A DNA stretch of 59,104 nt, taken from positions 1 to 59,104 of the IMG/VR virus record IMGVR_UViG_3300050016_000060. One strand, 5' to 3'. This document shows, piece after piece, positions 3,580 to 58,702 of this stretch (position 1 is the first letter of the stretch; every line of letters starts with the position of its first letter). This DNA is from a virus. Lineage: Duplodnaviria; Caudoviricetes. Both the position numbers and the translations under genes were made by a program. The notes below the pieces were generated by a model. The model saw only the letters and a list, made by a program, of their open reading frames with translations, was not told where the DNA came from and made no database searches.

Positions 3580-3762
3580 ATGAAAAAGCAACTTAGCCGA
3601 CAACGGCGCTGGCAGATTGCGCAGCGGAAAGCGGGACGATGCGAACGCTGCGGGGAGCCACGAAGCGAACGGAGCGGCATTCATTGCGACGAATGCTTGG
3701 ATAAACGAGCGGCGGAAGAAAAAAATAAAACCCGCCTTGACACACTTGCGGCTTGTGGGTAA
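3580..3762 (+). CDS. Small Zn-finger protein
   Basis: GRCERCG...HCDEC. Confidence 0.55.
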   Translation: MKKQLSRQRRWQIAQRKAGRCERCGEPRSERSGIHCDECLDKRAAEEKNKTRLDTLAACG

Positions 3763-4676: not shown

Positions 4677-5022
4677 GGCAATAACATACTTGGGCAATCA
4701 CATACTTGACGCATCAGGAGAAAAAATGGCAAAAGCAAAACTTGGTGGCGCGGAAGTGACCTGCGATAAATTCGTGAAAGCACTCATTGATCGGCTGCTC
4801 GGTAACGAAAAACGCATCGAGCTGCTGACCACGGAAATAAACGACTTGCGCGACCAAATGGCGGAACAAGCTGCGTGGCTCGTTGCCGGCAAAGGTTTGA
4901 GGTTCAGCAATGTTCTTGACGCTGACAGCGATCTCCCAAATTCACACACGGTATTCGTCCCTATCGAGCTATGCAAGTTTGGTGGGGAAACCGAATCCTG
5001 ATGCGTCAAGTATGTGATTGCC
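4677..5022. mobile_element. Non-autonomous IS1595-like mini-cassette carrying one gene
   Basis: Perfect 30-bp inverted repeat 4690-4719 / 4996-5025; extra partial TIR at 4677-4692; flanks CAATCGAA / CAATGAAG (degenerate target duplication). Confidence 0.8.
4726..5001 (+). CDS. Hypothetical cassette cargo protein (91 aa)
   Basis: AGGAG RBS overlaps left inverted repeat; TGA stop lies in right TIR. Confidence 0.7.
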   Translation: MAKAKLGGAEVTCDKFVKALIDRLLGNEKRIELLTTEINDLRDQMAEQAAWLVAGKGLRFSNVLDADSDLPNSHTVFVPIELCKFGGETES

Positions 5023-16654: not shown

Positions 16655-16694
16655 CCGGCACGTTCCGCTTCGGTTACAAGCCACGGTGCGCCGG
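16655..16694 (-). ncRNA. TIGR-like guide unit 6 (overlaps Tas stop codon)
   Basis: CCGG-CGC-accgtggct-TGTAACCG-aagcggaacg-TG-CCGG. Confidence 0.75.
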
Positions 16695-17465
16695 GTGATC
16701 GTTCCATTCAATCCAAAGCATCTTGAGGAAAAGTTTCGTCGCCAGCAACATGCCGTGCAAATGGCAACGCAGCTTTTTGTAATCGGGATGCGCCGCCTGA
16801 AACGTCGCCTTGGCTTCGTCGTAACGTGCCCGATAGATCGAATGATTTTGCTTCATTAACCCTTCCCCGATCAGGTAGGCAATCGAACGCCGACGAGGTG
16901 AATAGCCGAACTTCTCCCACTCTTCGGACGGCAATTTACCTTCCTTGCCGCGCCTCCACGTCGCTCCCATTGCTGTCTTGCCGTTGAAGATCAACGGGGC
17001 ACAACCGAGCCGCTTCCATACTTTTGCCGGATTGGCATAGTTGGCAAGGTCGCCAGTCTCGCCGATGACGATGGCGAGAAAGAGCAAGCCAAAACCGCGT
17101 TGCTCCGGTTTCTCGACCCATGCCTTGATCGGCAGTTTCTTGGCATATTGGAGCATGTTCTTTTCGATGGCATCCTTCTGCGCCTCAAAAGCATTGATGC
17201 CAATCAGCGTTGTCAGCACGATGGGCTTGAGCGGATGGTCCGCTCCCTCTTCCTCGATTGCCTTGATCTTAGCCGACGCCTCGATGAACTTCTTCGCTCG
17301 TTCCTCTTTGGTCATTGTCGTGCAATAGCCGAGCGTACCGGCAACTATTGCTTGCAAGCGATTGGATTGCATGTTGCGGCTTTTGACGATGATGCTACGT
17401 TGCCGCTGGAGCGGGACAAGTTGATCGACGATCAAGGCAATAGGACGTTTCGGCTGCATTGACAT
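16674..17465 (-). CDS. tasA: TasA-like Nop/IS110 Transposase_20-domain RNA-binding protein lacking a nuclease domain (263 aa)
   Basis: Coiled-coil N-terminus, RGFGLLFLAIVIGETGDLANYANPAKVWKRLGCAP, C-terminal H.HGMLLATKLFLKMLWIEW; no DEDD RuvC domain; AAAGGA RBS; flanked by guide units. Confidence 0.75.
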   Translation of the reverse strand: MSMQPKRPIALIVDQLVPLQRQRSIIVKSRNMQSNRLQAIVAGTLGYCTTMTKEERAKKFIEASAKIKAIEEEGADHPLKPIVLTTLIGINAFEAQKDAIEKNMLQYAKKLPIKAWVEKPEQRGFGLLFLAIVIGETGDLANYANPAKVWKRLGCAPLIFNGKTAMGATWRRGKEGKLPSEEWEKFGYSPRRRSIAYLIGEGLMKQNHSIYRARYDEAKATFQAAHPDYKKLRCHLHGMLLATKLFLKMLWIEWNDHPAHRGL

Positions 17466-17492
17466 GGTGTTTCCTTTCGGTTTGGGTGATTC

Positions 17493-17536
17493 TCTTGGCA
17501 TGATGCCACTCGGTTTCAAAGGATATCTCGTCAAGA
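17493..17536 (-). ncRNA. TIGR-like guide unit 5
   Basis: TCTTGA-CGA-gatatcctt-TGAAACCG-agtggcatca-TG-CCAAGA. Confidence 0.8.
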
Positions 17537-17539
17537 AGG

Positions 17540-17619
17540 TGCAAAAGAAGTCAGTAGAGGTTAATAACGCCTGGGTCGATTACACGAGCGTAGTCATTAG
17601 CCTACTGACTTCTTTTGCA
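17540..17619 (-). ncRNA. TIGR-like guide unit 4 with extended 18-bp outer stem
   Basis: Perfect IR 17540-17557/17602-17619 enclosing TGA-ctacgctcg-TGTAATCG-acccaggcgt-TA. Confidence 0.7.
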
Positions 17620-18097
17620 ACCTCTCGAATCCTCTCCGCAGCTTGTCCTCTGGCACGGACTCACGCACCGTCTTATCCTCTGGCACAAGCGTTGCGAGCC
17701 ATGTCGTCAGCATCACATTAAACCGATGGCCTTCCATAAGTTCCTTTTCGTCGGCAGCGATCTTCTCAAGTTCGTTGCCCATGACAGAGCCGAGCGACTT
17801 GCCAGCAATCGAGTAGAGGTAAACGCTCGCATAGGCATCGTTGACGGCCCCGGCAAGGTCTATTTTCGATTGATTGCTGTACGCTCCCGTATCGTTCTTG
17901 ATCTGACGATTCGTTATGTGCCGCTCGTCATGTACGCGGGCACGGATTGCCTCACGCACCAATTCGGCCTCGAATGATTTGAAATCGGGCAGATTCCGGA
18001 CTTGCTTATCCGCAAGATCGACTGCCGCGTCAATATCGTCGGGGAACTTCGCGGCACAACGCTGCGTTATCTTGATGACGCTCTGAGGAAACTCCAT
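17597..18097 (-). CDS. Unknown 166-aa protein embedded in the TIGR-like array (candidate accessory factor)
   Basis: AAGGAG RBS before ATG 18097; co-oriented with Tas gene and flanked by guide units. Confidence 0.7.
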   Translation of the reverse strand: MEFPQSVIKITQRCAAKFPDDIDAAVDLADKQVRNLPDFKSFEAELVREAIRARVHDERHITNRQIKNDTGAYSNQSKIDLAGAVNDAYASVYLYSIAGKSLGSVMGNELEKIAADEKELMEGHRFNVMLTTWLATLVPEDKTVRESVPEDKLRRGFERLQKKSVG

Positions 18098-49588: not shown

Positions 49589-49741
49589 CTAGAACTCTCT
49601 TCGCCTCCTGCAGTCGTTTGAACGGCCCCTCGCCGCGGATTTTTTGCGTTTTGCTTTTTTCTTCCGGTATCGTTTTTCCGCGCGGTCAAGTTCACGCTTG
49701 CCAACCGCCAGGAGAGCGCGGAGTAATTCGTCAAAGGTCAT
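49589..49741 (-). CDS. Small basic protein coupled to IS1595-like gene
   Basis: MTFDELLRALLAVGKRELDRAEKR..., homologous to 56378-56518. Confidence 0.65.
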   Translation of the reverse strand: MTFDELLRALLAVGKRELDRAEKRYRKKKAKRKKSAARGRSNDCRRRREF

Positions 49742-50622
49742 TGCCGTTGCCCCCGACAGATGCGGTGGATATATCGGATTGGCACACAAAAACGTTCGGC
49801 CAATTCAGCTCGCGACACGGATTCCTTGACCCGATGAATCTCAGCAATCTGTGCATCGGTCAAGAGTGCAAGGTGTTGTCGCTGCCCTCTCGCAGTGGTT
49901 CCGTGCCGGCGCTTGTCAGCCGCATTTTCCAAAGGCGTGCCCCATGCGAGATTATCCAACCGATTGTTCTCGCGGTTGCCGTCGAGATGCCTTGCCTCTT
50001 TGCCGTCTGGTCGTGGCCCAATGAACGCGGCGAGAACGATTCCAGCAACATTGACGTTGCGGCTTGCGGACTCGCTTCGCAGCGAAACACACCGATAGCC
50101 GTGACCGTTCAGCGTTGGATGCAGAAATTTCCACGGGCCATGAAATTTCGACCAAACCGATCCATTACTCCCAACGCGGTATGCCGGGAATCCGGCAATT
50201 GGACGATATTCTACGTGCGGTTCGGCGAGCAAAAATTCTTGAGTCTCCATCGCGACTTTGAGCCGGTGCAAAAGATACCACGCGGACGGCTGGCGGATGC
50301 CGAGCGCCCGCGCGAGTTCGCAACTGCTGATCCCGTTCTTGGCGTTGGCTCTACACCAGACGGCCACGAACCACTTATCCAAGCCGAGCGGCGAATCTTC
50401 AAAGATCGTCCCGACCTTCGCGGAGAATTGCTTGCGGCACCCAGCCGCTTTGCATTGGAGCATACACCGACTGGCGATGTTGCCGATCTTGTCCCCGCCG
50501 CATTTCGGACAGGTGATTTTCCCGTCCGGCCATTTCAGGCGGATCATGTAGGCGTGACACTCGCCGAGATCGGCGAAGTGCGTCACGGCTTCGATCAGGG
50601 TTTTTGGTCCGTTCTCGTTCAT
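49738..50622 (-). CDS. Fusion: IS1595 transposase Zn-ribbon + HTH joined to NUMOD4-HNH endonuclease
   Basis: KWPDG..CPKCG...CRKQFSAKVGTIFEDS.L.L.KWF...KNGISS..LAR.LG....AW..LHR then YRPIAGFPAYRV...G.VWS, HLDGNRENNRLDNLAWGT..EN. Confidence 0.85.
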   Translation of the reverse strand: MNENGPKTLIEAVTHFADLGECHAYMIRLKWPDGKITCPKCGGDKIGNIASRCMLQCKAAGCRKQFSAKVGTIFEDSPLGLDKWFVAVWCRANAKNGISSCELARALGIRQPSAWYLLHRLKVAMETQEFLLAEPHVEYRPIAGFPAYRVGSNGSVWSKFHGPWKFLHPTLNGHGYRCVSLRSESASRNVNVAGIVLAAFIGPRPDGKEARHLDGNRENNRLDNLAWGTPLENAADKRRHGTTARGQRQHLALLTDAQIAEIHRVKESVSRAELAERFCVPIRYIHRICRGQRQ

Positions 50623-51565: not shown

Positions 51566-51610
51566 GATCTTTCTCCGATGCGTCCTGCCCCTGATCGCCG
51601 GGGCCGCGTC

Positions 51611-51683
51611 GTCGAGTTCCTCACCCGACACCTTAATTATACCGGATAGCGTCGATGAGTCAAGCGTATAGTCTAGTTATTTT
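51611..51683 (-). promoter_or_regulatory. 73-bp direct repeat copy 1 containing strong promoter
   Basis: TTGACT-16-TATAAT; identical to 52904-52976. Confidence 0.85.
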
Positions 51684-51731
51684 GAAAGATTTATCAAAAT
51701 ACTTTCCTGACGTTCCCGACAGGTTTTACTC

Positions 51732-51755
51732 TGATGAGCCAAATGGATAATCACC
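51732..51755 (-). repeat. IS1595-like TIR (no partner found)
   Basis: GGTGATTATCCATTTGGCTCATCA. Confidence 0.7.
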
Positions 51756-52014
51756 CAAGCAAGTGCAGGGCATCTTGCGGTGTGCGAGCGCAGTAGATTC
51801 TCTGAGCGAAAGCTGGACTGTCAGCGTATGCCGAGTAGACGTTGTGCCGCGTATTGCAATCGTCGCAGAGTGTCGGCACGGTCATATCAGGTTCAATCGG
51901 AGCCATCCCAGGCATCCCGAAGTCAAGGACTTTGGGGTTGTTCGACCAGAACAATCCATCGTCAGATTCGCGGCCACAATGGGCACACAGACCGCCAAGT
52001 TTTGCCGAGCGCAT
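51751..52014 (-). CDS. Small Zn-binding hypothetical protein
   Basis: CAHCG...LCDDC; GGAGG RBS; stop codon inside the TIR. Confidence 0.6.
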   Translation of the reverse strand: MRSAKLGGLCAHCGRESDDGLFWSNNPKVLDFGMPGMAPIEPDMTVPTLCDDCNTRHNVYSAYADSPAFAQRIYCARTPQDALHLLG

Positions 52015-52863: not shown

Positions 52864-52903
52864 GGTTTTTCCCTTTCGTGCCCCGGGTCGGCCAGGGTTG
52901 CCG

Positions 52904-52976
52904 GTCGAGTTCCTCACCCGACACCTTAATTATACCGGATAGCGTCGATGAGTCAAGCGTATAGTCTAGTTATTTT
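52904..52976 (-). promoter_or_regulatory. 73-bp direct repeat copy 2 containing strong promoter
   Basis: Identical to 51611-51683. Confidence 0.85.
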
Positions 52977-53025
52977 CGGATTTTCCCGAAAATAGTTTTC
53001 TTGCCGTCCCGAAAGGCTCGGGGCG

Positions 53026-53049
53026 TGGTGCGTCAAGTGGATAATCACC
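53026..53049 (-). repeat. IS1595-like TIR abutting target sequence CAAATGAA
   Basis: GGTGATTATCCACTTGACGCACCA. Confidence 0.75.
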
Positions 53050-53070
53050 CAAATGAAGGCAATAATATAG

Positions 53071-53099
53071 TTGACTCACCACGCTCCGCTGCCTATAAC
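53071..53099 (+). promoter_or_regulatory. Promoter whose -35 lies inside the left TIR
   Basis: TTGACT-17-TATAAC, 6 nt before ATG 53106. Confidence 0.65.
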
Positions 53100-53105
53100 G
53101 AGAGT

Positions 53106-53882
53106 ATGAGCATGACAGAAAAACGCATCGAACTTTGGTCTTGTGGCGGCGGTCGGCAGTCAGCCGGTATCGCGGCCTTCATCAAGGAAGGCTTGCTCCC
53201 CAGGCCGGATCATGTCGTCATGGTCGCCTTGGAATGGGAAGTGCGGACGGTCTGGGCCTACGTCAACGCCTACATCCGCCCCGCAATGGAATCGCTGGGT
53301 ATCCCGTTCACAGCCATTCCACGAAAGAAGTACGCGACGAAAGACTTCTGGGGCGGCGCAGACGGCGATTCCACGCTCTTGCCGGTCTACACGAACCAAT
53401 CGGGCGAGAACTCCAAGCTGCCAGAGTTTTGCAGCGGGGAGTGGAAGCGAGAAGTCGTCAAGCGCTGGGCCGCTGAACAACCTGGGTGGAAAGATCGCGG
53501 GGTAAATTGCTGGACTGGCATCAGCAAGGATGAGGCGGGCCGTCGCGGTGTCGCGCGGGCCTTGTGGTACGGGCCGACGTATCCCCTGCTCGATGTCCTC
53601 TGCACTCGCGTTGCCGGTTGCCTGATGGCTGTAGAGCGTCAAGGATGGCCAGCCCCGCCACGTTCGCGGTGTCGGCATTGTCCGAACCAGCAAGACGCGG
53701 AGTGGGCCGAACTGACTCCCGAAGAGTGGGAGCTTGCCTGCCAGACCGATGAAATGGTCCGCGAAGTCGATCCCCACGCTTTCCTGCATAAGAGCATGAT
53801 GCCGCTGCGAATGGTTACGTTGAATCCAGACGACGACAACGGCGGCTTGTACGGTGGATGCCAGAGCGGAACTTGTTGCTAA
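53106..53882 (+). CDS. PAPS reductase-like / PP-loop adenine nucleotide alpha-hydrolase family protein
   Basis: SCGGGRQS, CSGEWK, GISKDE, YPLL, PPRSRCRHCP, terminal GCQSGTC. Confidence 0.8.
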   Translation: MSMTEKRIELWSCGGGRQSAGIAAFIKEGLLPRPDHVVMVALEWEVRTVWAYVNAYIRPAMESLGIPFTAIPRKKYATKDFWGGADGDSTLLPVYTNQSGENSKLPEFCSGEWKREVVKRWAAEQPGWKDRGVNCWTGISKDEAGRRGVARALWYGPTYPLLDVLCTRVAGCLMAVERQGWPAPPRSRCRHCPNQQDAEWAELTPEEWELACQTDEMVREVDPHAFLHKSMMPLRMVTLNPDDDNGGLYGGCQSGTCC

Positions 53883-53891
53883 AGGTGAACC

Positions 53892-54431
53892 GTGATTGAT
53901 GAGAAGAAATCGACGGAAGCAGTTGCACTTGAACACGGCATGAATTGCCCACATAGGACGCCGAACAGCGACGACGATTGCACCTGCGGATTGCGTTGGC
54001 GGATCGCTCTCCAAACAGAACAGACGATGCACGCCGCATGGAGGAAGAGAGCCGAGGAAGCAGAAGCCGCGATTGCCGTTAGCTCTCAAGATGCCGTAGC
54101 CAAAGAATGCGAACGAATCAGCATCACAATCTACATGGCCGGGGACATCGCCCAGGCCAAGCAGATCATCCGTGGTTTTTGTTGGGCTCGCGGCTGGTGC
54201 GTAACGGTGACGCCAACGGCGTACATCTACTCCGGTGGTGAAGAAAGCGGCTTCATTGTTGGAATCGAAAACTATCCGCGATTCCCTTCCACGCTGGATG
54301 AATTGACCGGGAAGGCAAAGGAACTTGCCGAACGATTGGCCGTGCTTCTCTTTCAGAAAAGTTACATGATCTGCACACCAAAAACGACATTCTGGCAAAC
54401 CGACAAAATGCCTTTTGAAAAGGACAGTTGA
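53892..54431 (+). CDS. Conserved phage hypothetical protein
   Basis: IYMAGD...CVTVTPTAYIYSGGEESGFIVGIENYPRFP. Confidence 0.7.
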   Translation: MIDEKKSTEAVALEHGMNCPHRTPNSDDDCTCGLRWRIALQTEQTMHAAWRKRAEEAEAAIAVSSQDAVAKECERISITIYMAGDIAQAKQIIRGFCWARGWCVTVTPTAYIYSGGEESGFIVGIENYPRFPSTLDELTGKAKELAERLAVLLFQKSYMICTPKTTFWQTDKMPFEKDS

Positions 54432-54579
54432 ATGAACGCAGACGGACCCCAAACCCTGATCGAAGCTGTGAAGCACTACGCTGATCTCACGGTCTGCCAT
54501 AACTACATGGTCAAGCTGAAATGGTCTGATGGCCGGATCGTCTGCCCGAAGTGTGGTAGCGACAAGATCGGCTCGGCAA

Positions 54580-54807
54580 TCACATACTTGACGCATCAAG
54601 GCCCGTCTGGGCTTTCACTAGCGCGAACTTCGCGCCGTACTTGATCTCGGCATCTTTAGTGGCCCGTCGTCTTGCTTCTCTCCCGTCGTTCCATCCGGCC
54701 ATGAAATCTTCGTCGTTCTGCATTCCCGCCGGCGTTGGCTGAACCGCCGCTGAACAAAACCACCCACGCATGTAAATCATCATCAGGTTGTACTGGTCTG
54801 CGCTCAT
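54580..54807 (-). CDS. Hypothetical cargo protein
   Basis: GAGGAG RBS; stop codon inside TIR. Confidence 0.6.
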   Translation of the reverse strand: MSADQYNLMMIYMRGWFCSAAVQPTPAGMQNDEDFMAGWNDGREARRRATKDAEIKYGAKFALVKAQTGLDASSM

Positions 54808-54816
54808 GTCAACTCC

Positions 54817-55026
54817 TCAAAAGTAGTCGTCATCCAGAGGTTCGTATTCCTTCATGACTGAGCCAGTTCCTTGGCATCGAGAGCATTCACGCACGCGAAG
54901 AAGATCGTCAACGATTGATTGCAACTCGCCGCTTCCCTGGCAATCTGGACACTCGTCACCTTCCTCGTGGTTTCCATCCCCGTTGTTCCAGTCGTAAGGT
55001 TCAATCGGGCAACCGTGATAGTCCAT
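54817..55026 (-). CDS. DnaJ-type zinc-finger small protein
   Basis: CPDCQGSG...CSRCQGTG. Confidence 0.65.
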   Translation of the reverse strand: MDYHGCPIEPYDWNNGDGNHEEGDECPDCQGSGELQSIVDDLLRVRECSRCQGTGSVMKEYEPLDDDYF

Positions 55027-55031
55027 GTCGG

Positions 55032-55655
55032 TTACACCTTCTTTCCTGTCAGCCGTTCAAATATCTCAATCGTCTTCCATCCTTGCTCTGTCATCAGGTC
55101 CGCAAGAATGCAGTTGTCGGTCTTCAAAGTGGAATGCTTGATCTGACGTGCGTATGCCGTCAATCCAGCAATGAACCCGTGATGAAACGCCGTCGCCTCT
55201 TCAACCGTTTGCGGGCCTGTGAACGGTTCGCTAGAACACGTTACCAATACTTCCGGGAGGAACTCATCTGGTCGGCATTCCTTGCAAAAATACTCCGATC
55301 CGGCTTTGTGGTCGCACTTGATGTCGAGCGGCGGAAACTCGTTGCGGTCGTCTTTCGGATTCCTATCGTCCTTGATTTCTTCGAGTTGAAAAATAGATGC
55401 CGCCAACTTTTCAAATTGGTTCCCTTTCATCGGGCAGTCCGCTTCATTGCACCTAACGAAGTGGTGACACGCAAGGAATGTCGTGTTGCACTTCAGGCAA
55501 ACCTCGTCAACCAATCCATCACGGTAGGCTTGCACTTGCATCTCGACCAACTTGGCGTCCGGGAACCGTTGACGATGCAGCGACTCCGCAGCTTCCCTTT
55601 CGTGGCCAGTCGAATTACGTTTTCTTGCTTCACTCATAGATTTTCTCCTATTCAA
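55032..55655 (-). CDS. Cys-rich hypothetical cargo protein
   Basis: 207 aa ORF; start may be ATG 55637 (AGGAG RBS). Confidence 0.6.
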   Translation of the reverse strand: MNRRKSMSEARKRNSTGHEREAAESLHRQRFPDAKLVEMQVQAYRDGLVDEVCLKCNTTFLACHHFVRCNEADCPMKGNQFEKLAASIFQLEEIKDDRNPKDDRNEFPPLDIKCDHKAGSEYFCKECRPDEFLPEVLVTCSSEPFTGPQTVEEATAFHHGFIAGLTAYARQIKHSTLKTDNCILADLMTEQGWKTIEIFERLTGKKV

Positions 55656-55876
55656 TCACCAGGGCAGTTTTCCGGGAATCCACATACCGTGTCGTGACAA
55701 TCGCAACCGTCGTGCGGATCAGCGCCGCATATTTCGCAGTCGTCGCTGTCCATTTCGCTGGCATCGCCTACAATTCCATCCCAGCAATCAAAGCAAAGAT
55801 CGGTTTGCTGTCCTTGCCATTCGCCAGACCATTGAACATCGAATTGCGTCCCGCAGATTGTGCAAGTTCTGTCCAT
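55652..55876 (-). CDS. Small Cys-rich cargo protein
   Basis: CTICG...CFDC...CEICG. Confidence 0.6.
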   Translation of the reverse strand: MDRTCTICGTQFDVQWSGEWQGQQTDLCFDCWDGIVGDASEMDSDDCEICGADPHDGCDCHDTVCGFPENCPGD

Positions 55877-56064
55877 TACTTCTTAACCTCGTCGATCCAA
55901 GATCGAATCCAGTAATTGAAATGCTTGTGCGCCAACGTGAACGCCTCTTGCTCTTCCTTCGTCAACGTCGATGAACTTCCGCCCAGCATCCCGTACCTCG
56001 GATCGCGGTCGATGTTCGCCAGCAGTTTTTCAAAATCGGCTTCCGCCAGGATGTAGGCTTTCAC
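55876..56064 (-). CDS. Hypothetical cargo protein
   Basis: GGGAGG RBS adjoining the TIR. Confidence 0.65.
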   Translation of the reverse strand: MKAYILAEADFEKLLANIDRDPRYGMLGGSSSTLTKEEQEAFTLAHKHFNYWIRSWIDEVKK

Positions 56065-56377
56065 GGACCAACCTCCCTTGATGCGTCAAGTATGTGATTA
56101 CCATCGGCTCGATTGCCACGCGATGTATGTTGCGCTGCAACGCGAAGGGATGCCGGAAACAGTTTAGCGTCAAGGTCGGCACGATCTTTGAGGATTCCCC
56201 CCTGGGTCTCGACAAGTGGTTCATCGCGATCTGGTGCGTCATCAATGCCAAGAACGGCGTCAGCAGCTACGAGATTCATCGGGCGCTTGGCGTTACGCAA
56301 AAGACGGCCTGGTTCATGGACCATCGAATCCGCTTGGCACTCAAGACCGGCACGGCGGGTTTTATGGGGATCGAGTG

Positions 56378-56518
56378 ATGGCAAAATCCAAGGAAGCAAC
56401 GGCGTTCGATAAGGCGATGGCCGCACTTGTCCAAGTTCCGAAATCGGAACTTGACAAGGCGCTGCGCGAAGAGGCGCGGGCGAAGAAACGCCGCAAGCAA
56501 CGCAAGCACAAGCGATGA
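56378..56518 (+). CDS. Small basic protein coupled to IS1595-like gene
   Basis: MAKSKEATAFDKAMAALVQVPKSELDKALREEARAKKRRK. Confidence 0.65.
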   Translation: MAKSKEATAFDKAMAALVQVPKSELDKALREEARAKKRRKQRKHKR

Positions 56519-56622
56519 TGAATTTAGCCAGCATTTTCGCCCTCGCATGAATCAGTAATCCGTGGTGAGCCAAGTATGTCATTACCCAAATGAAACTTGG
56601 CTGCTTGTGTTTGCGAGGGCAA

Positions 56623-58191
56623 TCATATACTTGACTCATCAGCCGAAAAACCGCTGCCACAGAACGCAAAAAGCAACCGCGCCACAAGCCGGGACGACTG
56701 CATTTCCCAGCGCGCGAAGCTCATCGGTTCGACTGTTTGGAGCGTTGCCCATCCCATCGGCAACCCCTGTAGCCACTCCACGAATCGCGGATTGAGTCGC
56801 GGGCGCGAGGTCGGGCCTGACGGCAAGGATGCGCTCCCATTCGGCTCTGGCGGCGGGGCCTGGGGGCCAGTAAGGGATTCCTGAAATATCCGCACTTGGT
56901 CCGTGATCGTTGTCGTGATCGGCTCGCCGTCCTTGTTTCTCGGCATCTCCCCAGGTGCCCATGTCGCTTCTTTCGTTCCCGCTGACATTTGATTTCTTGG
57001 CGTGGCCCATTGGCTCATCGTCTGCTCCACCGACTTCGCAAACTCCCCGCCCAGCCCCTGCTTGCCCGTCGCATCCACTCCCGCCATCCCTGCTGGCGTC
57101 GGCCACAACTCCGAAGAGGCAGTCGGGACAGGTTCCTCGATGTTCATCGCTGATACGCCGGAAAACAAGTCCGCTTCCTTTGCAGGTCGTGCAAATTCTT
57201 CGATCGCTCCCCGCAGGCTGTCCTGCTTCCCCGGATGGTTGCCGCAACTCTCCGAGTCCTCCGCTCGTGGGGTCGGCCACGTTCCCGTTTGGCGATTCAG
57301 ATTGGCCCCCTGCGTCGATGTCTCGTCCACTCCCGGCCGTCTGCCGTCGTGCGATGTCGGGCTGTTCCACAGCGATTCCGTTTCCAGATTCTCCATGAGG
57401 ATATTTGCTGCTGCTGCTGCTGCTGCTGGCGAATGGCGTGCCCGTTCCGAGGGACAATCCAGATTCGCGTTTTTTGTCGGAGTCGGCCAGCACTTCGTCG
57501 CGCCCGTCAGACTGTCCATCGCGTCGGGGTGGTTGCCGCAACTTTCGGAGTCCTCGGCTCTGGGGGATGGCCAGTTGCTCGCCTCTTCGCACAACGCCCG
57601 AAAGCCCAGGGCCTTCGCTTCGTCGCTGCATACCGGCTCTTTGTGCTCCGAACTTCGCGGCGTAGGCCAAGAGGAAGAACCGTTCCCGCCGCTGGGGCGC
57701 TCCAACGTCTTCCGCCGCCACACTGATCCACTCCGCATCGTACCCGTCTTCGGCCAGCTCTCCGAGTATCCGAACGATGGGAGCTGTAAGCTGCTTTCCG
57801 CGCTCTGGAATAGCGATCCCTGGCACGTTCTCCAGGAAGAGGAATGGCGCTCCCACGTCGCGAAGGGTTCGCCGCAAGGCGGGCCAGAGATTTCTTGGAT
57901 CGCGTTCGAGTTCACGCTTTCCGGCGATGCTGTTTCCCTGGCAAGGGATTCCCGCAACGACGCAATCCACGAGACCGCGAAAGCCTTTGCCTTTGAAGGT
58001 GGTAAGGTCCGTCCAAATAGGCGCCGGATCAAGCCGCCCTTCTTCCATGCGCGTTGCCAGAACTTCGGCGGCATAGATTTCCCTCTCCAAGTGAACGAGC
58101 GTGCGAACGCCTGGCATTGCGAGTCGGACGGACAATCCGAGTCCGCCGATGCCGCTGCAAACTTCGATAGTTGTGAAGGAATTATCCACAC
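56623..58191 (-). CDS. Overlapping-frame partner of the methyltransferase (WPTP repeats + motif IX-like end)
   Basis: 522 codons open, same strand; repeated W-P/N/A-T/S-P; RLNPRFVEWLQGLPMGW. Confidence 0.7.
   Translation of the reverse strand: MWIIPSQLSKFAAASADSDCPSDSQCQAFARSFTWRGKSMPPKFWQRAWKKGGLIRRLFGRTLPPSKAKAFAVSWIASLRESLARETASPESVNSNAIQEISGPPCGEPFATWERHSSSWRTCQGSLFQSAESSLQLPSFGYSESWPKTGTMRSGSVWRRKTLERPSGGNGSSSWPTPRSSEHKEPVCSDEAKALGFRALCEEASNWPSPRAEDSESCGNHPDAMDSLTGATKCWPTPTKNANLDCPSERARHSPAAAAAAANILMENLETESLWNSPTSHDGRRPGVDETSTQGANLNRQTGTWPTPRAEDSESCGNHPGKQDSLRGAIEEFARPAKEADLFSGVSAMNIEEPVPTASSELWPTPAGMAGVDATGKQGLGGEFAKSVEQTMSQWATPRNQMSAGTKEATWAPGEMPRNKDGEPITTTITDQVRIFQESLTGPQAPPPEPNGSASLPSGPTSRPRLNPRFVEWLQGLPMGWATLQTVEPMSFARWEMQSSRLVARLLFAFCGSGFSADESSI
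56639..58189 (-). CDS. dcm: DNA cytosine-C5 methyltransferase (alpha-type chain)
   Basis: Motif I CSGIGG, IV GIPCQ, VI LENVPG, VIII QRRERFF, X LRALGNAVVP; motif IX not in this frame. Confidence 0.9.
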   Translation of the reverse strand: MDNSFTTIEVCSGIGGLGLSVRLAMPGVRTLVHLEREIYAAEVLATRMEEGRLDPAPIWTDLTTFKGKGFRGLVDCVVAGIPCQGNSIAGKRELERDPRNLWPALRRTLRDVGAPFLFLENVPGIAIPERGKQLTAPIVRILGELAEDGYDAEWISVAAEDVGAPQRRERFFLLAYAAKFGAQRAGMQRRSEGPGLSGVVRRGEQLAIPQSRGLRKLRQPPRRDGQSDGRDEVLADSDKKRESGLSLGTGTPFASSSSSSSKYPHGESGNGIAVEQPDIARRQTAGSGRDIDAGGQSESPNGNVADPTSGGLGELRQPSGEAGQPAGSDRRICTTCKGSGLVFRRISDEHRGTCPDCLFGVVADASRDGGSGCDGQAGAGRGVCEVGGADDEPMGHAKKSNVSGNERSDMGTWGDAEKQGRRADHDNDHGPSADISGIPYWPPGPAARAEWERILAVRPDLAPATQSAIRGVATGVADGMGNAPNSRTDELRALGNAVVPACGAVAFCVLWQRFFG

Positions 58192-58246
58192 GATTCAGCC
58201 TCTTGATGAGCCAAGTATGTAATTGCCCTTCATTTCCATGCTTCGC

Positions 58247-58702
58247 TCATGGCGTCCCTCCTTGCAGCGTCAACTCGCTCGTAGCCGTCACTTCCGCCGC
58301 CTGTCCGGTGAATAGCGAAAATGCCGCGTTAGGGAATGTGGTCGGCCCATTGAACACCAGGCCGCTCGGCAAGTATAGCGTCGAGTCGGGGCAGACGATC
58401 TTCTTGGCCACGACCGTCAGCGTTGCGAAGTCCACCACGACCGGCTCAGGGATCAGGTTGACGACGAAGCTATTTCCCGCCGCGTCCTTGCCCTGCCCTA
58501 TGCAGGCGTCTACCTGCCAGATGCCTACGTGCTTCCATCGCACCATCGTTTCAGGGATCGTCACGATCATCTTGATCGGCGTGCCGTCCGGCAGCGGGAA
58601 GGTTCCCTGCATGTTCTCGATGGCGGTTCGCTTGAGGTGGATGCCGTAGGGCTTAACCTCCATTGCGGGGCAGAGCAGAGTTGCCTGAATGACGGTCAGC
58701 AT
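58247..58702 (-). CDS. Hypothetical protein
   Basis: GGGAG RBS before ATG 58702. Confidence 0.55.
   Translation of the reverse strand: MLTVIQATLLCPAMEVKPYGIHLKRTAIENMQGTFPLPDGTPIKMIVTIPETMVRWKHVGIWQVDACIGQGKDAAGNSFVVNLIPEPVVVDFATLTVVAKKIVCPDSTLYLPSGLVFNGPTTFPNAAFSLFTGQAAEVTATSELTLQGGTP

Follow-up and report, generated by a model that had tools for sequence, protein, structure and literature searches.

Introduction

Mobile insertion cassettes (MICs) consist of inverted repeats with a target duplication, lack a transposase and are mobilised in trans (PMC3913671). Passenger genes are also carried by 'transporter IS' (tIS), which are restricted to two families of insertion sequences (IS), IS1595 and IS66 (bioRxiv 10.1101/2021.05.26.445724). 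Members of the IS1595 family usually produce 8-bp duplications, and their transposases possess a zinc finger at the N terminus and a DDE_Tnp_IS1595 domain (PMC8101967). MITEs (miniature inverted-repeat transposable elements), which are non-coding and from tens to several hundred bp in length, have been reported in viral sequences, and IS are reportedly rare in the genomes of phages, because insertions are purged (PMC11602168). Here we describe a nested insertion in a phage genome (Duplodnaviria; Caudoviricetes), IMG/VR record IMGVR_UViG_3300050016_000060, in which an element without a transposase (54575-56102) lies inside the transposase gene of a larger IS1595-family element (53058-56586). 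The nested element is very probably a MIC-like IS1595 derivative that was moved in trans by an IS1595-type DDE transposase.

The nested element has the structure of a MIC: its inverted repeats are those of an IS family, it encloses no transposase and it is flanked by a target duplication. In MIC231 of the IS231 group and mic-qnrD, the terminal repeats of a known IS likewise surround passenger genes instead of a transposase, together with a target duplication, and mobilisation in trans is presumed (PMC3913671). The present element differs from MIC231 in that its ends are of the IS1595 family, in its location in a phage genome and in being nested in a member of its own family; moreover, trans-mobilisation is experimental for MIC231, whereas here we infer it. 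IS231 itself belongs to the IS4 family.

Like the IS1595 tIS of the ISNwi1 type, the host element and its relatives have repeats starting with GG, 8-bp duplications and passengers of 1-2 kb, and the relatives encode a transposase with a zinc ribbon and a DDE_Tnp_IS1595 domain. However, the copy in the window (the whole 59,104-bp stretch that was analysed) is without the DDE domain, and the nested cassette is without any transposase. MITEs are likewise non-autonomous, have inverted repeats and target duplications and need an outside transposase, but the cassette is 1528 bp long and carries five open reading frames (ORFs), which sets it apart from MITEs in both size and coding content. This is a known IS family and a known kind of derivative, and no new mobility mechanism is involved. 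No description of IS1595-family elements in phage genomes was found in the literature, in a search outside which many subscription papers lay, including the founding IS1595 paper.

The nested insertion

The window is the whole IMG/VR record, a linear contig of 55.7% G+C that is approximately 80% complete according to CheckV and carries phage genes including a large terminase and a portal-like gene. The nested element is bounded by terminal inverted repeats of 27 nt at 54575-54601 (plus strand) and 56076-56102 (minus strand), which match at 26 of 27 positions. Directly outside them lie the two copies of the 8-bp target-site duplication ATCGGCTC, at 54567-54574 and 56103-56110. With up to three mismatches, the 27-mer end occurs four times in the window and not once in 100 shuffles.

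In-silico excision of 54575-56110 turns 54432-56378 into one open frame of 411 nt (136 codons), in which the joint reads KIGS-IATRCM. The restored frame is gaplessly collinear with residues 1-127 of a paralogue at 49738-50622 on the minus strand, with 87 of 127 residues identical, and the insertion point falls between the two cysteine pairs of the zinc ribbon of the interrupted gene. A preliminary description of this DNA had proposed that a five-gene cassette without a transposase jumped into this gene, and that removing it with one duplication restores a frame collinear with the paralogue. This reading of a nested insertion is right: repeats and duplications were seen both by direct reading and by script, the frame is restored, and the cassette has five ORFs with no transposase-like match.

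Assembly could in principle have created such a structure, as the contig is metagenome-derived. The sole public run found to hold the window sequence, here termed X1, is labelled as a peat metagenome. It was examined as assembled contigs, from which rare variants are dropped. In X1, a single contig of 6,080 nt with a depth of 35 covers 52947-58400 with no differences and thereby supports all four element junctions. This contig comes from a second assembly (Logan), but X1 is possibly the source sample, so the support from this single run is not independent. A mis-join, however, would not yield matched inverted repeats together with an exact 8-bp duplication and a restorable frame. An assembly artefact or chimera is very unlikely.

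The interrupted gene and the host element

The 5' piece of the interrupted gene (54432-54574, plus strand) encodes the first half of the zinc ribbon and gives a partial Zn_ribbon_IS1595 match. The 3' piece (56111-56378, plus strand) encodes the second half and the helix-turn-helix region, and then the last seven residues of a full-length transposase. Full-length relatives end in a conserved ...GDAGFMGI(E/K/Q) tail, and the window gene keeps residues 1-127 and the final AGFMGIE, followed by the stop. Because the restored protein stays collinear with these relatives through residue 127, with AGFMGIE coming directly after, the gene is an IS1595 transposase gene that has lost its whole catalytic DDE domain through an in-frame internal deletion. 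Similar internal deletions have arisen independently in related loci, leaving 123 aa in L033 and 219 aa in L012. The target had previously been called a transposase-like gene of a larger element, a description that stands and can be refined to an IS1595-family transposase gene minus its DDE domain.

A search with the 3' piece returned 94 stretches of viral contigs, from which 79 loci were kept, 60 of them with an ORF of at least 300 aa. Zn_ribbon_IS1595 was matched in all 29 loci that were put to Pfam, and DDE_Tnp_IS1595 was matched fully in 19, partially in four and not at all in six. Anywhere in the 59-kb contig, DDE_Tnp_IS1595 (PF12762) gave no match at E<=1. Neither element of the nested pair is an autonomous member with a DDE_Tnp_IS1595 transposase of its own, the nested element encoding none and the host element only the N-terminal zinc-ribbon part.

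The stop of the interrupted gene is overlapped by a small basic ORF of 46 aa (56378-56518, plus strand), whose position is conserved in related elements; tblastn matches to it were found in L005, L007, L091, L093 and L238-L240. Small Lys/Arg-rich ORFs at or after the transposase stop were also observed at 49589-49789 of the window (minus strand) and at 3637-3723 and approximately 6900-7061 of L005. The IS1595 family is described as single-gene.

The host element (53058-56586) is a passenger-carrying member of the IS1595 family that was 1993 bp long prior to the nested insertion. Its ends, at 53058-53083 and 56561-56586, are complementary at 21 of 26 positions (81%), and it is flanked by the duplication CAAATGAA at 53050-53057 and 56587-56594, which bears out the earlier statement that this element has a duplication of its own. 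Upstream of the transposase gene it carries a PAPS-reductase-like passenger gene of 258 aa (53106-53882, plus strand; phrog_424, E 3e-20) and a second passenger gene of 179 aa to which no function could be assigned (53892-54431, plus strand; phrog_4848). A PAPS_reduct gene is cargo of a related element in L045 as well. Three viral loci with a PAPS-reductase-like relative (66-70% identity) have no other gene in common with the window, and no ends are present in the DNA retrieved from them.

Cargo of the nested element

The nested element is filled by five tightly packed ORFs of 62, 74, 201, 69 and 75 codons, all on the minus strand, and is approximately 96% coding. In all five, G+C at the second codon position (GC2) is lower than at the third (GC3), as in coding sequence, and most are preceded by a Shine-Dalgarno-like motif. 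ORF 1 (55876-56064, minus strand; 62 aa) has a GTG start behind AAGGGAGG and ORF 2 (55652-55876, minus strand; 74 aa) is Cys-rich; from the ORF listing and the Pfam and PHROG searches, neither could be assigned a function. ORF 3 (55032-55637, minus strand) is an orphan of 201 aa when started at its ATG; the ORF listing begins it at a TTG upstream of this, which gives 207 aa. ORF 4 (54817-55026, minus strand; 69 aa) has a CXXCXGXG-type zinc-finger motif, with matches to DnaJ_CXXCXGXG (E 5e-7, below the Pfam cut-off) and to the Q-like phrog_6060 (E 6e-7). The 3' end of ORF 5 (54580-54807, minus strand; 75 aa) enters the left repeat.

ORF 3 has no match in Pfam or PHROG, and among 5.8 billion proteins it matches only itself. 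In a structure atlas none of its matches reaches 0.9, and the model of the protein itself is of poor quality (predicted local distance difference test, pLDDT, 0.47), while none of eight pattern matches in viral contigs was confirmed as a relative. A tblastn search of the retrieved loci with all five cassette proteins found nothing, and no transposase, recombinase or nuclease family was matched by any of the five in Pfam or PHROG. The cargo had been spoken of as phage genes, a label that we do not retain, as the cassette ORFs are without informative relatives and the largest of them is an orphan.

Ends shared with the IS1595 family

The ten ends observed in the window were combined into a weight matrix, which detected ends in 80 of the 97 loci available at that stage. 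In the typical arrangement, one end precedes the transposase gene by approximately 50-200 bp and the second is 1.2-3.1 kb distant, and full-length transposases in the viral loci sit between the same end motif as the window elements. There are 65 pairs of plus and minus ends within 7 kb, and 35 of these have identical 8-bp flanks (two in the window and 33 on other contigs). The 33 outside pairs have 30 distinct duplications, mostly AT-rich, and one further pair has flanks with a single mismatch. Both elements of the nested pair have an 8-bp duplication and ends in common with elements that encode Zn_ribbon_IS1595 and DDE_Tnp_IS1595, and both are assigned to the IS1595 family as members or derivatives.

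Beyond viral contigs, a degenerate 24-nt end pattern was found in at least 127 stretches of bacterial genomes. Among the 127 matches listed, 64 have a transposase homologue in the adjoining flank, which is near full length in 26, and the titles of the listed matches include Acidobacteriota, Planctomycetota, Verrucomicrobiota, a cyanobacterium, Rubrobacter, Dehalococcoidia and others. The 24-nt motif is kept across at least six phyla by title (L101-L227), an unusually strong conservation for IS ends. This suggests wide horizontal spread of the elements, possibly through carriage by phages.

Other cassettes without a transposase were found between ends of this kind. One in L089 (1483 bp, duplication CTGCGGAG) carries a single N6/N4 DNA methylase gene, and one in L020 (508 bp, duplication ATTGGATG) carries a Dam-like ORF. 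The L089 cassette and a methylase cassette at 56618-58227 of the window resemble the restriction-modification units of Furuta et al. 2010 (PMC2853133), in which modification genes lie between long inverted repeats with an 8-bp duplication and non-autonomy was considered. In the accessible text those units are not linked to a defined IS family, whereas the ends described here are common to transposase-bearing IS1595 elements.

Passengers of the duplication-flanked elements were surveyed in a hand-picked set of 32 of the 68 ORFs, those overlapping transposase genes being left out; the set was picked by hand because choosing the longest ORF gave spurious antisense ORFs in GC-rich DNA. Pfam matches were obtained to DUF3800 (six), PIN (one, and one more weakly) and PAPS_reduct, SocA_Panacea and N6_N4_Mtase (one each), with one Dam match just below the cut-off, and 20 of the 32 matched no family at E<=0.001. 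DUF3800 cargo recurs in the viral contigs L015, L021, L042, L050, L058 and L062.

Probable mobilisation in trans

As the contig has no DDE_Tnp_IS1595 domain, the cassette is best read as MIC-like and moved in trans. On this reading an IS1595-type DDE transposase would have been supplied from elsewhere, and its N-terminal zinc-ribbon and helix-turn-helix part would have bound the repeats. The DDE domain would then have joined the ends of the element to a target staggered by 8 bp, and the ATCGGCTC duplication would have arisen when the gaps were repaired. The target was the zinc-ribbon codons of a transposase gene in 53058-56586 from which the DDE domain had already been deleted. The enzyme may have come from the missing approximately 20% of the genome, from a phage infecting the same cell or from the chromosome of the host. 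In X1, other contigs match short N-terminal coding pieces at 90-95% and then diverge, which places related genes in that community and hints weakly at where the enzyme may come from.

Several points weigh against this reading. The 59-kb contig contains no transposase able to act, so mobilisation in trans is something that we infer. Viral contigs, X1 contigs, the protein collection and the retrieved loci yielded neither an empty site nor any further copy or relative of the cassette. ATCGGCTC has a higher G+C content than the majority of the 30 other duplications, which are mostly AT-rich, and simple transposition does not account for three neighbours with the same kind of ends (56618-58227, 4693-5022 and the solo ends at 51755 and 53049). 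The assignment of the ends to the ISNwi1 subgroup, whose ISfinder consensus they seem to resemble, is likewise putative.

The paralogue at 49738-50622 (minus strand) raises the question of whether a phage-encoded protein moved the cassette. It combines an IS1595 N-terminal zinc-ribbon domain, which reaches 83% identity to its counterpart in true transposases, with an HNH_3 nuclease that stands where the DDE domain would be. This intact protein is encoded in the transposase slot of a degraded element, between the end at 51755 and 57 nt that are 96% identical to the right arm of the L240 element; the alignment to that related arm diverges after the 57 nt, and no end remains below the paralogue. 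The same Zn_ribbon_IS1595 and HNH_3 architecture recurs in 10 of the best 120 database matches, at 43-56% identity. Together with the lack of a DDE domain in the contig, this makes the HNH protein a candidate mover. However, repeats typical of the family, combined with an 8-bp duplication, are the hallmark of a DDE enzyme, and the same ends flank genuine DDE transposases, while an HNH nuclease that acted by homing would not duplicate its target. Nor does the cassette look like a homing cassette, with no nuclease family among its five ORFs and with its 8-bp duplication. One of the cassette proteins might be proposed as the mover instead, but none of them matches a nuclease or recombinase family. 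Movement by the HNH paralogue or by a cassette protein is thus very unlikely, and an IS1595-type DDE transposase acting in trans is preferred.

The HNH fusion may itself represent a re-used end-binding domain. A scan of viral contigs with the HNH half found ordinary HNH genes, none with a zinc ribbon or ends. A metagenome scan with an alignment of the fusion found almost only transposase N-termini, and the apparent long match in L240 consists of two separate matches. The 57-nt stretch (window 49637-49693, L240 5731-5787) is 96% identical in elements that are otherwise 75-83% similar, which points to recent exchange of IS segments.

Neighbouring modules

IS1595-derived modules follow one another at the right end of the contig. 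The methylase cassette at 56618-58227 has ends of the same family but no transposase and no target duplication, and carries only a C5 DNA methylase gene (56639-58189, minus strand). The host element is placed exactly between this cassette and the end at 53049, which belongs to a solo right-end module (52876-53049, minus strand) that abuts the duplication of the host element. A second right-end module (51583-51755, minus strand) is an approximately 177-bp direct repeat of the first, and the repeat unitig has approximately double depth in X1. The 177-bp repeat spans 51583-51759 and 52876-53053 and comprises a right-end inverted repeat, a stem-loop and a sigma-70-like promoter. The inward TTGACT-N16-TATAAT of these two solo modules led us to consider that the repeats are mere promoters, but the duplications show transposition and the idea was rejected.

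Near the other end of the contig lies a 330-bp element (4693-5022) with perfect inverted repeats of 30 nt, a 91-aa ORF and no target duplication, whose first 24 nt are identical to the left repeat of the nested element. A partial left end of 16 nt (from 4677) comes directly before it, and the sequence just past 5022 (CAATGAAGG) resembles the host target CAAATGAA plus GG. Since 56618-58227 and 4693-5022 show no duplication and neither solo end (51755, 53049) has a partner, recombination or deletion between ends has also shaped the region, alongside transposition.

Elsewhere in the window, an ORF of 286 aa at 16674-17534 (minus strand) matches phrog_4285, annotated as 'transposase' (E 1.6e-7), and has no Pfam match. 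By eye it seems to resemble the C-terminal half of an IS110-type protein. It adjoins a 27-nt inverted repeat at 17531-17628.

Age of the insertion

The cassette had been said to have moved recently, but the evidence does not carry this. The identity of the repeats cannot date the event, because functional constraint keeps them alike even between phyla, and neither an empty site nor another copy of the cassette was found. The insertion could instead be old and fixed, the elements being inert fossils in a dispensable region; the mechanism of origin would be the same, and only the timing and activity would differ. An old relic would be in keeping with a contig that has no transposase, a host transposase that had lost its DDE domain beforehand and neighbouring modules that have lost some of their ends or duplications. 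Since the repeats are conserved across contigs as well as phyla, a match at 26 of 27 positions is no sign of youth, and X1 contigs show no empty-site form, nor was another copy of the cassette seen.

Against great age, the duplication is perfect at eight of eight positions, and both halves of the interrupted gene are still open and gaplessly collinear with their relatives over 136 codons. The 330-bp element at 4693-5022 also has the same 24-nt end. The empty site (joint 54574/56111) is absent among the assembled contigs of X1, but rare empty-site variants would be invisible in such contigs, and this result is silent either way. An old, inert insertion is on balance quite conceivable, if somewhat short of probable.

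Possible implications for phage gene exchange

At least five modules in this phage have ends that belong to a single IS family: the nested pair, the methylase cassette, the 330-bp element and two solo ends. In soil and peat phages, IS1595 elements and their derivatives could form a transposition-based system for exchanging accessory genes (methylases, PAPS-reductase-like, DUF3800, PIN and SocA), nesting into tolerated arrays, with the end-binding domain re-used as a stand-alone protein of 130-160 aa or as an HNH fusion that targets element ends. This wider picture is speculative, and we consider it rather unlikely to hold as a whole. The cargo of the related elements is typical of phage-host conflict. 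As a clean example from nature, the nested insertion illustrates how cassettes without a transposase can add genes to a phage, and also why elements pile up inside one another where essential genes are dense.

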